A stretch of DNA of 60,500 bases, filler included, from Fonticula-like sp. SCN 57-25 (Eukaryota): the NCBI GenBank assembly GCA_001724245.1. It is 10 parts of 10 records of this genome, joined end to end, with 100 filler letters (N's around TTAATTAATTAA, not from the genome) between each part and the next. Parts side by side here need not be neighbours in the genome. Positions count along the whole stretch, not along the records: positions 39,572 to 44,886 come from MEDX01000591.1; 9 more parts are not named here. One strand, 5' to 3'. Of the stretch, positions 40,109-44,436 are shown piece by piece. Within the stretch, counting starts at the first letter, position 1, and each line of letters starts with the position of its first letter. A model generated the notes under the pieces. That model was given only the letters and a program-made list of their open reading frames with translations, searched no databases and had not been told where the DNA came from. Both the position numbers and the translations under genes were made by a program.

Positions 40109-41571
40109 ATGGAGGTCTGCAAGAGGGGGCTCAGCTGCGAGCATGTGATTGACTCTTTGCATCAAGACAAGAAACGTCATGCCTGCATTTACGGCGCGAC
40201 GTGCAGAATTGTAGAGTCTGACACATCTGGCTTGCATGCGCAACGTTTCGTTCACGATGCACCGATAACCTCGGCGCGGGAAGTTTGCAAGGCCCGTGCA
40301 AACTGTGCGCAGCTGGCCAACCGCAGCCATCTCTTGTCCCACTTGCACGAGTGCGCTCGCGGCGTCGAGTGCGTGCAGGTCGACCCTCAGCATCACTTTT
40401 ACTTTTCTCACGGCGGCGAGGTTCGCCCGCGGGTGCTGTGCCAGACGGCTCGGTGCCCGCTTGTCAATGATGCCGCGCACACCGCCCTGTTCATGCACGT
40501 GTGCTCATGGGGAAGCAGGTGTAACAAGCAATCCCAGGCGGCCCACGTGTTGCGCTTCATGCATCCCCGCGAGTACTGCCCCGACCGCCTGAGTTGCACG
40601 CTCATCGATGTTGATCAGTCCCATCGCTCCGCCTTTCGCCACGTCTGCCCCGCCTTTGGCGACTGCGCCAAGATCAAGGATCCAATGCACGCGCTTCGCT
40701 TTGCCCACCCGACGCTCACTTCTCTGTACGCCATTCTCTTTTACTTTAGCATTCTATGTTTTACCTTTACTGATCTCCATAAAGGCCGCCGTGTCCGCAG
40801 GGATCGCTGTGCGACAAGAATCGGCCGGAAAGCGAGCACAACTGGGAGTTTACGCACCCATGCAAGGTCCCGAGCTGCACCAACGAGGACCTCATCCACA
40901 AGCAGACGTTTACGCACGAGGTGCCGTCGCTGATGCAGATCGACGGCTTCATCAGCAAGCTGCCGCCGGAACTCGCCGCGTCGGGCGAGCAAAAGTATGA
41001 GCTAATGCCCATCAACCAGGCCTCGACAGAGGCAAAGTTTATTTTGGACCGGTTTGTCAACACGCTGGGGAAGACGTACACGCTTCGCCGCATCGAGCGC
41101 GTCTGCAACCCGTTCCTCTTGAAGCTCTATGTGGGCAACAGGAACAAGATGGCCGCCGATCGCGGAGGCAAGGCCAACGAGCAGCTCATGTTCCACGGGT
41201 CCCAAAGCTGGAAGGAGATTCTTACAAACGGGTTTGACTTTCGGTATTCAAGAAACGGTCGCTATGGCTGCGGTGCGTACTTTGCGTTTAACTCAAGATA
41301 CTCGGATAGCGGGTACGCCGTACCGGTCTTTGGCTTCTCTGCGTTAACGCCCCACTTATTGTTTTGCAGTTATGTAGGACAGGACGAGAATGGATTCAAG
41401 ACCATGTTTGTCTCGTACGTCGTTGCCGGTGTGTCGACACAATGCGCGCCCAATTCCGCCCTCACTGAGCCGCCGAACGGCGCGGATTCGGTCATCGAGC
41501 CCAACACCATGGTCATTGTGTACAAGGAGTTTCGGGCATACCCGGCCTACCTTATCAGATACACAGCATAA
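40109..41571 (+). CDS. PARP-family ADP-ribosyltransferase with ten N-terminal PBZ-like CCHH zinc fingers (start codon uncertain)
   Basis: Introns 40726-40784 and 41313-41369 join the fingers to IERVCN..., EQLMFHGS, GRYGCGAYFAFNSRYS, MVIVY, AYPAYLIRY. Confidence 0.85.
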
Positions 41572-42312: not shown

Positions 42313-43503
42313 ATGAGGGTGGGCGACTGCGTCGCTGCGGTGGTTGGGGCTGGTCCCGCCGGCCTCTTTGCTGTGGGTTCCTTGCTGGACGCTGGCGTTG
42401 CTTCTATTCTGTGGGTTGACGCGTCGCACGACGGTAGCGGTCGTCTCAAAAAGTACCTTGCCGTGCCGAGCAACACCAAGGTCCGCCTCTTTGTCGGCGC
42501 CGTCCTCGCGTGCGACTCGTTCAAGGCCGCCTGGGAACACGTGCGCGCCAACGGTGGGGGAAAGTCGCTTTCGGACCTCGAGACACTCGCGCAGGACGGC
42601 GAGTGCCCTCTTGGCTTTGCGGCCGCTGCGCTCGAGGAGCTCGCCGGCGGCATCCTGGCCGTGTTCAAGGATCGCCTCACGACCCTCACGGGATACTGCG
42701 ATCGCATCGAGCGCTCGACGTCGGCGGACGGCACATGGACCCTGAGCGTCGGCTCGGAAAAGTTCCGCGCCAAGATGGTCGTTTTGGCGACGGGCAGCGC
42801 GCCCATCCTGCCGGCCGACCATGCGGCGCCGCACAGCAAGCATGGCGCCGCTGTGATCGAGCTCGATGATGCGCTGTCGCCGGCCGTTCTTTCTGGCCTT
42901 CTTGGCTCGCAGGCGGGCGCTCGCGACATTGCCGTTGTTGGTTGCAGCCACTCGGCCGTTCTCGTGCTCCGCAATGTGTCGGACATTCTTTCGGCGCGCG
43001 GCGACGGCAACGCGTCGCGCATCAAAAACTTTTACCGCTCGCCGCTAAAATACGCCGAGTACATTGACGCTACTACGATTATCAACGACAACACGGGTCT
43101 CAAGGGCCTTGCGGCCAACTGGGCGCGCACGCACCTCGAGGACGGCTGCGCGGCGCCGCTCTCGCACATGCACCGCATCAAGACGGACCCGTCGAATGAA
43201 AGTGGCATCTACGACAGCGAGCTCGCGTCGTGCTCGTCAATCATTTACGCGATCGGGTACGCGCGCAACAGCCTGCCGGTCATTGCGGTGGACGGCGCCG
43301 AGGCAAAGAGCGTCGAGCACGGCGAGGGCGGGCAGCTCGTCGTGGACGGCGTGCCGCAGCCGTCCCTGATGGGCTTTGGCATCGCGTTCCCGGAGCGCAT
43401 CATTGGCATCGCCGGCAACGAGGAGAGCAACGTCGGGCTTTGGAAGTTTATCCGCTTTATCCGCGCATCGATTTCAAAGGCCGTTCCGAGCATCATTGCA
43501 TAG
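42313..43503 (+). CDS. FAD/NAD(P)-binding pyridine nucleotide-disulfide oxidoreductase-like protein, intronless
   Basis: VVGAGPAGL, VPSNTKV, VVLATGS, VVGCSHSAVLVLRN, NTGLKG, YAIGY, GFGIAFPE, NVGLWKF. Confidence 0.8.
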   Translation: MRVGDCVAAVVGAGPAGLFAVGSLLDAGVASILWVDASHDGSGRLKKYLAVPSNTKVRLFVGAVLACDSFKAAWEHVRANGGGKSLSDLETLAQDGECPLGFAAAALEELAGGILAVFKDRLTTLTGYCDRIERSTSADGTWTLSVGSEKFRAKMVVLATGSAPILPADHAAPHSKHGAAVIELDDALSPAVLSGLLGSQAGARDIAVVGCSHSAVLVLRNVSDILSARGDGNASRIKNFYRSPLKYAEYIDATTIINDNTGLKGLAANWARTHLEDGCAAPLSHMHRIKTDPSNESGIYDSELASCSSIIYAIGYARNSLPVIAVDGAEAKSVEHGEGGQLVVDGVPQPSLMGFGIAFPERIIGIAGNEESNVGLWKFIRFIRASISKAVPSIIA

Positions 43504-43581: not shown

Positions 43582-44436
43582 TTACGCGTCGACCTTTTCG
43601 CCGCGCAGCATCTGCACGGCGCGGAGCTGGCGGTACTGGGCAATCACGCGCTCGCGCTCGGTCTCGAGCTGTCGCTTGTCGGCCGCAGAAAGATCGCGAA
43701 GCTTGGTGCGCTTGGGCAGCGGCTCCCCGGGCTCGTCCACCGGCTTGGGCGGGCGCGGCGCCGACTCTTCTTCTTCTTCGTCGCTGCCGTCCTTGTTGGA
43801 AATTTCGTGCTGAGGGCGCTTGCGCTGCTTCAATACCGTCTTGATGTGCGGGATGTCCTGGGCGACCTCTCCAAACTTGGGCGCAGTCTGCTCCGTGCGC
43901 TGGCGCACAGACTCTTCAAGCAGCTCGTCCTTTGCCGCAGCCCCCTTTTCGGCGAGATGCTTCTTGCGCTGTAGCAAATGCCTTGAAAAACAAATTAGAA
44001 AATATTCAAAAAAAGGGTCGCGTACTCTTTCCGGCGTGCGCTGACCTTGCGCGTGTTGCGCATGTCGGTCTGGAGCTGCTCGCGGAAGGCGGCATCGACA
44101 CGGCGCGAGTACTCGTTCAGCGATTCGTCCGGACGAGCCACCGGGGCAATGCTATTCGAGTCGGCCTGCTTTGGCTTCTTGGGCTCTTTCGCAATCTTTT
44201 CCGTCTTGCGGATGCCTTGCAGCATGTGGCGGAACGACCGCGGCGCCTTGTCCGAGCGGGCCGTGGTCTTCTTGGTCGGGGCGCGGTCATACTGCGCCTC
44301 GATCTTTGCCCTGTTCACCAGATAAGCTTCTGGATCAAATAGCACAATTAAATATAACGCACCGCTGCTCGAGCTGCGCCTTGTTTAGCTTGGCATCGGG
44401 ATCAAAAGCCTTGATCTTGCCGCGGCGACGTGCCAT
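43582..44436 (-). CDS. CCDC137-like basic coiled-coil protein
   Basis: DKAPRSFR, RPDESLNEYSRRVD, KFGEVAQDIP, LETERERVIAQYRQLR; two introns. Confidence 0.6.

Follow-up and report, generated by a model that had tools for sequence, protein, structure and literature searches.

A gene joining ten paired, probably PBZ-type zinc fingers to a clade-3-like ADP-ribosyltransferase domain in Fonticula-like sp. SCN 57-25

Organization of the gene and its paired fingers

The window, a 60,500-nucleotide stretch of DNA from Fonticula-like sp. SCN 57-25, contains at 40109..41571 (plus strand) a gene of three exons, whose spliced product of 448 amino acids combines an array of ten zinc-finger units with a C-terminal ADP-ribosyltransferase (ART) domain, the catalytic domain of PARPs. 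The gene is situated on contig C591 (39572-44886) of an assembly of 9.5 Mb in 749 contigs. The window as a whole is composed of contigs of mostly about 5.3 kb with nine spacers (within 5366-50399), each made up of 44 N, a 12-base AT stretch and a further 44 N; genes across a spacer are not neighbours. Exon 1 (40109..40725, +) harbors the start codon and fingers 1 to 8, which make up pairs 1-4, exon 2 (40785..41312, +) finger pair 5, a linker and the beginning of the ART domain, and exon 3 (41370..41571, +) the remainder of the ART domain and the stop codon. Relative to the first Cys, the starts of the orthologs P0002 and P0016 match the start of exon 1. Intron 1 (40726..40784, +; 59 nt, GT..AG, 34% GC) shifts the frame, intron 2 (41313..41369, +; 57 nt, GT..AG) is in frame and free of stop codons, and both open with GTACGC and close with AG.

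Uninterrupted orthologs, intron and exon differences in run X1 and relatives from transcriptomes in which array and ART are joined lend support to both introns. P0002 (436 aa) is one uninterrupted open reading frame (ORF) with ten fingers and an ART domain, colinear with the spliced product over the whole length at an identity of 38.5% overall, 51% in the ART domain, the best-conserved part of the protein, and 58% for the exon 3 product. Its alignment is free of gaps at both splice junctions, as is that of P0016, likewise a single ORF with ten fingers and ART. The 19 codons of intron 2 fall into a gap in P0002 and P0016 and largely into a gap in the PARP15 alignment. Contigs of run X1 differ from the 59 bases of intron 1 by five substitutions and a 1-base deletion, and from 694 covered exon bases by six listed differences, five of them synonymous (one run, single contigs, depth 7-8, differences close to contig ends omitted); the exon differences hint at purifying selection. 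Transcriptome-derived proteins of Arcella intermedia and Rigifila ramosa carry array and ART within one chain. The original prediction, which was made from the DNA alone and placed fingers and ART in one gene, is thus borne out by uninterrupted orthologs of the same layout, and the domain-architecture search it had proposed retrieved this layout in relatives including Arcella and Rigifila, so that the gene is not unique. The proposed count of paralogs revealed no expansion: the ART gene is the sole PARP match in the assembly, a weak result in an assembly that is incomplete and apparently mixed. By sequence the gene is conserved and possibly single-copy.

All ten units predicted to follow C-x4/5-C-x6-10-H-x5-H after splicing were found, with the four zinc ligands present in every one of them (residues 4-24, 26-49, 60-80, 82-101, 111-130, 132-152, 157-178, 180-200, 209-230 and 232-250 for fingers 1 to 10). 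Shuffling of the first 290 amino acids (n = 5000) yielded at most two motifs, a maximum reached in 15 of the 5000 shuffles. As predicted, the fingers are closely linked in pairs: five of the links consist of one residue (H-x-C) and the other four of 4-10 residues, resulting in five pairs. Pair 1 (residues 4-49; 40118..40255, +) holds finger 2 with its C-x-Y-G motif and is followed by pair 2 (residues 60-101; 40286..40411, +). Conservation is lowest in pair 3 (residues 111-152; 40439..40564, +; 21% to P0002), where finger 6 displays C-x-W-G, and highest in pair 4 (residues 157-200; 40577..40708, +; 45% to P0002), while pair 5 (residues 209-250; 40792..40917, +) is encoded by exon 2. A Phe four residues after the first His occurs in 8/10 fingers; the exact spacing C-x5-C-x6/7-H-x5-H is found in five, the others being off by 1-3 residues. 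With 29 Lys and Arg against 25 Asp and Glu, the array is close to neutral.

The order of the fingers is largely fixed. The best match lies in register for 6/10 fingers in P0002 and 5/10 in P0016, and for 7/9 in P0009 after re-indexing by hand (finger 5 was missed by the pattern). Each finger possesses its own conserved signature across the orthologs. A sensor repertoire subject to shuffling would not be expected to keep its fingers largely in order. Together with the lack of paralog expansion, a weak result in an incomplete assembly, this weakens the suggested role in innate immunity.

The fingers had been described as PBZ-like. Pfam PF10283 (PBZ) did not match exon 1 or exon 2 at E<=1, and a genome-wide scan with this model found two other loci, the array locus not being among them. 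In contrast, a profile of the five pairs retrieved the tandem PBZ of APLF (E 6e-9), with no other match scoring better than E 8. An AlphaFold2 model of exon 1 (47 sequences; pLDDT 84, pTM 0.55) gave APLF as top row in Foldseek (E 0.016). One modelled finger superimposes on the CHFR PBZ with 0.8 Å over 24 residues (E only 0.22) and a modelled finger on APLF finger 1 with 1.5 Å over 24 residues; Nab2, Unkempt, CPSF30 and ZAP appear as weak rows (E 0.1-6). A fold row in BFVD (E 7e-4) was judged non-specific (TM 0.13-0.15). The link to PBZ therefore rests on pair profile and structural model rather than on PF10283, and each finger probably adopts the PBZ fold. At each modelled H-x-C junction, the first finger's helix continues into the strand that opens the second, and this H-x-C pair appears to have no solved counterpart detectable in the fold searches carried out here.

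The ART domain, its relatives and known systems

The ART domain (residues ~276-448; 40993..41568, +), split by intron 2, follows finger 10 after just about 25 amino acids. By Pfam, WGR and regulatory domains are absent, and neither a CCCH finger nor a WWE domain is matched in the protein. PF00644 is matched even with intron 2 left in (E 5e-8, 33.1 bits against a cut-off of 26.7), so that of the two profile checks originally envisaged the PARP model succeeded and the PBZ model did not. Among PDB chains the domain is closest to PARP15 (E 8e-14), ahead of tankyrase-2 (5e-13), with PARP14 and PARP12 also retrieved and values ranging to 5e-10. A family profile, run against solved structures, ranks PARP12 first (E 5e-47), followed by PARP15 (8e-45), PARP14, tankyrase (1e-35) and PARP1 (8e-11); unlike with this profile, the scores of PARP15 and tankyrase are close when the window domain is used alone. 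The analogy drawn earlier to ZAP and PARP12 is strengthened by PARP12 being the best solved match.

Within the catalytic triad, His343 (41194..41196, +) and Tyr371 (41278..41280, +) align with their PARP15 counterparts, and the position of the catalytic Glu is taken by Met429 (41509..41511, +), common to P0002 and P0016. This assignment follows from the Met429 column, which holds the Leu of PARP15, the Ile of PARP12 and, in a Glu-bearing relative aligned with that Ile, the Glu itself; the prediction of an ART with His and Tyr but Met at the Glu position (H343-Y371-M429) is thereby backed by alignment. His, Gly, Tyr and the flanking NAD+-site motifs are invariant in four orthologs. Seven residues past the triad Tyr lies a Tyr, as in PARP12 and PARP15. 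In PARP1, a Lys at this position supports chain elongation. Previous work lists Ile, Val, Met and Leu as replacements of Glu in clade 3 PARPs and associates such replacements with mono activity (PMC2964712); Met for Glu is accordingly not new. By sequence the domain is assigned to the clade-3 (PARP12/14/15-like) type, and since it combines Met at the Glu site with Tyr at +7 as in PARP12/15, the predicted mono-ART activity is probable.

To place the array among its relatives, the pair profile was run against 1.84 billion representatives, which gave 379 matches at E<=0.001. The best 150 were taken, and after removal of P0005, a read-through ORF of the window itself, the remaining 149 listed relatives were scanned with Pfam. 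An ART domain is present on 20 of them, 19 by the Pfam PARP model (three under the curated cut-off) and P0071 by our own ART profile. The others carry a bacterial-type PARG (25), an EEP domain (7; the one member tested is CCR4/Angel/nocturnin-like), the nucleotidyltransferase (NTase) head of CCA/poly(A) polymerases (2) or NADAR (1), RING (5), or one each of kinase, UFD1, SAM and zf-PARP, the last without an H-x-C link; the rest display only matches to PBZ-type or other fingers, or none. Enzymes of ADP-ribose metabolism are thus found on 46 relatives (20 ART, 25 PARG, 1 NADAR) and RNA-end-type enzymes on nine. BRCT, FHA, WGR and Ku were not seen among the best five Pfam families per protein in these 149. 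The H-x-C link is common in the ART (81/116), EEP (25/33) and NTase (14/19) groups, reaches 4/7 with NADAR and 7/17 with RING, and is rare in the PARG group (27/253). Chained arrays fused to UBC and UFD1 (P0120), a Ser/Thr kinase (P0025), RING (P0051) and SAM (P0153) may tie the module to ubiquitin and signalling.

Six of 20 relatives looked up could be named: an NTase of Gefionella okellyi, a NADAR of Eutreptiella gymnastica, an EEP protein of Naegleria lovaniensis, a RING protein of Entosiphon sulcatum, the array-ART of Arcella intermedia and a WWE-array-ART of Rigifila ramosa, in which the WWE domain is N-terminal to the array. These organisms belong to several eukaryote supergroups. NADAR enzymes undo ADP-ribosylation of guanine (PMC11125620).

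The array-ARTs contain 4-10 fingers. The third triad residue could be scored in 16 of 22 ART rows and is Glu in eight, Met in four, Val in two, and His and Thr in one each. P0022, P0028, P0032 and P0072 are PARP12-like, have kept the catalytic Glu and carry a Lys seven residues past the triad Tyr, which makes them candidates for chain-making clade-3 enzymes. A tree of the 22 ART domains unites the window protein with P0002, P0016 and P0009 at 100/97, and the Rigifila proteins P0050/P0157 with P0035 (triad H-W-V) at 98/98; deep branches are weak, and named reference PARPs were not in the set. The Arcella protein with Met is placed outside the window group, and Met for Glu may thus have two origins. 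The triad of P0069 is broken (N-H-T).

ZAP, PARP12 and PARP7 are animal RNA-sensing antiviral zinc-finger PARPs. With these proteins (PDB 2pqf, 6v3w, 2x5y) the window protein shares an N-terminal finger array and a C-terminal clade-3 ART lacking the catalytic Glu. In contrast to their CCCH fingers, however, its ten fingers are of the CCHH PBZ type and H-x-C-chained, a WWE domain is lacking, Met stands in place of Ile/Val, and the host is a protist. Because of its CCHH fingers and the missing WWE it is not a member of the ZAP/PARP12 group, even though it would work like a zinc-finger clade-3 PARP. CCCH-type PARPs have been placed in animals only (PMC4245714, PMC2964712, in the parts available).

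The PBZ of APLF and CHFR (PF10283; PDB 2kuo, 2kqb, 2xoc) resembles the window fingers in C-x5-C-x6/7-H-x5-H spacing, [FY]-x-H end and probably local fold. In APLF and CHFR the domain occurs once or twice, with a long linker, whereas the window array consists of ten fingers in tight pairs, is unmatched by PF10283 and has an aromatic-Gly site in 2/8 fingers. PBZ and a PARP domain in one chain have been reported in Entamoeba histolytica, Capsaspora, Branchiostoma and Dictyostelium (PMC4245714; PMC4030884); these proteins could be compared by descriptions giving neither finger number nor PARP clade, so that an overlap with the window family is possible. The bacterial-type PARG of Adineta vaga, with several PBZ repeats (PMC4245714), is similar in bearing a long PBZ-like array on an ADP-ribose enzyme, but is an eraser rather than a writer, and the fingers of this type are mostly spaced (H-x-C in 27/253 against 81/116 in the ART group). 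The macro-PARPs PARP14 and PARP15 (PDB 7f43, 3goy) provide the best single-sequence ART match (E 8e-14) and a reader-writer logic, but their reader is a macrodomain, absent from the window protein.

The claim that the architecture was undescribed is weakened. The combination of PBZ with PARP and the Met substitution had already been reported (PMC4245714, PMC2964712). In the literature searched, which left out most subscription titles, no description was found of chained PBZ arrays of 4-10 fingers on a clade-3 ART, and the main text of a fungal PARP preprint (10.64898/2026.07.25.740670) contains neither 'PBZ' nor 'CCHH'. Pfam misses the array and intron-blind callers split the gene, which may explain the absence of a description. 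Sequence comparison indicates a real, conserved gene and a family of chained-array, PBZ-type ARTs in which a known layout is combined with a different finger type. A protist family with the PARP12/ZAP layout but PBZ-type fingers would mean that this design either arose on two occasions or predates animals by far. The family also bears on the shifts between poly and mono activity among clade-3 PARPs: Glu is kept in 8/16 scorable members, where PMC2964712 knew of one only.

Possible ligands and function of the array

The original prediction had proposed a multivalent reader of poly(ADP-ribose) (PAR). A PAR-binding consensus, [KR]xxCx[FY]GxxCx[KR][KR]xxxxHxxx[FY]xH, has been described (PMC4030884, PMC4756826) and is complete in 0/10 fingers; fingers 2 and 6 reach 4/6 features, the others 1-3. 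The test is blunt, since the PBZ finger of a gene of the same assembly, presumed to encode a TDP1-like protein, likewise scores 4/6. A better discriminator is the aromatic-Gly site, present in 2/8 C-x5-C fingers of the window array (fingers 2 and 6), 5/21 in three orthologs and 17/90 in 17 other array-ARTs, compared with 24/30 in strong PF10283 proteins. The C-Y-R motif of APLF (PMC6264785) was dropped as a test for PAR, as it is absent from 10/10 fingers here but also from 37/37 in six strong PF10283 proteins. Few aromatic sites and a near-neutral array weaken the idea of a multivalent PAR reader, and a reading with ten PAR sites appears doubtful. In combination with the fixed finger order, the scarcity of aromatic-Gly sites suggests that the array is stable, with adenine pockets conceivable in one or two of its fingers. 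The C-x-Y-G of finger 2 is kept in 4/4 orthologs, which makes this finger the best candidate for an adenine or ADP-ribose site.

The protein may thus be envisaged as a clade-3 mono-ADP-ribosyltransferase of a microbial eukaryote, with intact His and Tyr and Met in place of Glu, whose array docks it on RNA or ribonucleoprotein that is marked with ADP-ribose or rich in adenine. Each finger pair would form one folding unit with putatively bound zinc, given that the modelled helix of the first finger runs via a short strand into the second, and five such pairs would give rise to an extended arm. One or two fingers with an aromatic-Gly pocket (finger 2, perhaps finger 6) would bind adenine, most likely in ADP-ribose marks and possibly in A-rich RNA, with the remaining fingers acting as spacers or secondary surfaces. 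Docking on an ADP-ribosylated ribonucleoprotein or RNA would then allow transfer of single ADP-ribose units onto nearby proteins or nucleic-acid ends. This reading is favoured because the partners of the array are mostly ADP-ribose enzymes and the RNA-end enzymes belong to the H-x-C-rich group, but it is put forward tentatively, with somewhat less than an even chance of being correct. Going by partner domains and analogy, RNA metabolism or stress and defence signalling would be a more likely setting than DNA repair.

Several observations weigh against it. Most fingers lack the aromatic site (present in 2/8) and the array is not basic, a poor fit to PAR or RNA, and the W-G of finger 6 is not retained in P0002 or P0016. 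The fold of the array found no significant match, neither in the PDB with Foldseek at E<=0.001 nor with VIA-align, where no chain among 48,161 reached Z>=2, and at a pTM of 0.55 in a zinc-free model the arrangement of the pairs is unsure. The occurrence of arrays on RING (5), kinase, UFD1 and SAM proteins would also be expected of a general adaptor, and the argument from partner domains amounts to guilt by association. Moreover, no transcript of the ART locus itself was seen, which leaves no evidence on expression either way.

More broadly, H-x-C-chained PBZ-fold arrays might be an old, protist-wide targeting module of an RNA-centred ADP-ribose system, with the same array directing a PARP12-like writer, an eraser of the NADAR type and RNA-end enzymes (CCR4/Angel-like, CCA/poly(A)-type) to one set of RNAs, ADP-ribosylated or rich in adenine; this view is speculative and rather unlikely to hold. 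If true, animal RNA surveillance by ZAP/PARP12 would have a counterpart that was built separately, and members retaining Glu may show an ancestral, chain-making state of clade-3 PARPs.

Among the alternatives to docking on ADP-ribose-marked or adenine-rich RNA, an RNA sensor in the manner of ZAP/PARP12 survives best, although it is judged unlikely. Here the array would recognize the sequence of single-stranded RNA, such as that of viruses, with no need for ADP-ribose, and marking by the ART would commit the bound RNA or proteins to silencing or decay. The proximity of the ART to PARP12 at the family level, the Rigifila member uniting WWE, array and ART, the parts of PARP12/ZAP, and the weak Foldseek rows for Nab2, Unkempt, CPSF30 and ZAP are consistent with this, as are the same arrays on CCR4/Angel/nocturnin-like and CCA/poly(A)-polymerase-like enzymes and the report that PBZ is structurally nearest to RNA-binding CCCH fingers (PMC4030884). 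However, the fingers are CCHH and match APLF in sequence, not CCCH proteins, the array charge is nearly neutral, no paralog expansion was seen in the partial assembly, finger order is conserved, and the partners comprise 46 ADP-ribose against nine RNA-end enzymes.

DNA-damage signalling had also been suggested. A PAR reader-writer similar to the Dictyostelium PBZ proteins, which have been tied to DNA repair (PMC5087659), would wrap PAR at a break with up to ten fingers while the ART adds marks. The probable PBZ fold of the fingers, the occurrence of PBZ mainly in DNA-damage proteins, PARPs included (PMC4245714, PMC5087659), the more than 1000-fold gain in affinity with tandem PBZs (PMC4030884) and the PBZ-TDP1 gene elsewhere in the assembly would all suit such a role. 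It is nevertheless improbable: the full consensus is found in 0/10 fingers (best 4/6, in a test blunt enough that the PBZ-TDP1 finger scores the same), the aromatic-Gly site in 2/8 against 24/30 in strong PBZ proteins, none of the 149 listed relatives was assigned BRCT, FHA, WGR or Ku among its best five Pfam families, which also weakens the suggestion as first made, and the ART is distant from PARP1. Were the fingers ordinary PAR readers, the family would be a modest extension of the known PBZ-PARPs.

A comparably low probability is given to a scaffold for protein binding or spacing, in which the array has lost nucleotide binding and picks protein substrates for the ART. Degenerate pockets in most fingers, neutral charge, finger-specific signatures conserved among orthologs and arrays on RING, kinase, UFD1 and SAM proteins agree with this possibility, for which SNM1A, with a PBZ without PAR-binding residues (PMC4756826), provides a precedent; the C-x-Y-G of finger 2 in 4/4 orthologs and the strong skew of partners to nucleotide-handling enzymes do not. 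These small, expressible proteins are suited to the question of what degenerate PBZ-fold fingers bind.

That the ART is catalytically dead, as in ZAP, and the protein a binder only is very improbable, since despite the loss of Glu and the broken triads of some relatives (such as P0069, N-H-T) the His, Gly, Tyr and NAD+-site motifs are invariant in four orthologs and the ART is the best-conserved part of the protein. A fusion of two separate genes by a splicing artefact is extremely unlikely. It might be suggested by the databases, which split the locus into P0005 (274 aa) and P0001 (212 aa), and by the lack of a locus transcript, but these calls are intron-blind, single-ORF orthologs align across both introns, and in run X1 intron 1 contains closely spaced substitutions along with a 1-base deletion.

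Neighbouring genes and further searches

Apparently tail to tail with the ART gene, about 70 bases from its stop codon, lies a gene for an NDUFA5-like complex I subunit (PF04716; 41644-42150, -) with short introns. It is followed by a single-exon gene for an FAD/NAD(P)-dependent oxidoreductase (42313-43503, +; PF07992, E 8e-7). Neither neighbour hints at a functional link with the ART gene. Further downstream, a basic gene that is probably spliced is represented by two open frames (43582-44381, -) without a Pfam match; the product presumably resembles CCDC137. On another contig, an ABC ATPase gene (PF00005; 37726-39471, +), which we take to be ABCF1-like, displays repeated Lys/Gly/Asp-rich N-terminal units and is cut by the contig end.

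Homologs were also sought by other routes. A word-based search among longer proteins with exon 1 confirmed 0/110 candidates; with the ART part 2/126 were confirmed, one being the window locus, and with the family alignment 5/2307. Leads in the ESM Atlas all stayed below 0.9 (exon 1 to a PF10283 cluster at 0.77, P0002 to PARP clusters at 0.84). Scanning of metagenomes yielded 0/41 stretches with P0002 and 10/370 with the ortholog alignment, none of the ten containing a finger array. In viral contigs 0/3 and 0/2 were found and the pattern was not matched, while 2/102 proved to be PARP1-like proteins without fingers; the viral contigs scanned thus give no sign of a viral home for the array. Labelled by eye, the loci met in these searches include a long PARP14-like ORF of ~1800 aa (L006-L008), a kinase-PARP fusion on an AT-rich contig (L015) and PARP1-like genes on large viral contigs, one of 306 kb and one of 111 kb (L016-L017).

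In the Fonticula-like assembly itself, a near-canonical PBZ opens an ORF at L004 (1387-2334), whose TDP1-like label is our own assumption from its motifs. An almost identical PBZ stretch with its upstream region recurs at L005 (1432-1824) with a different continuation and is possibly a partial duplicate.

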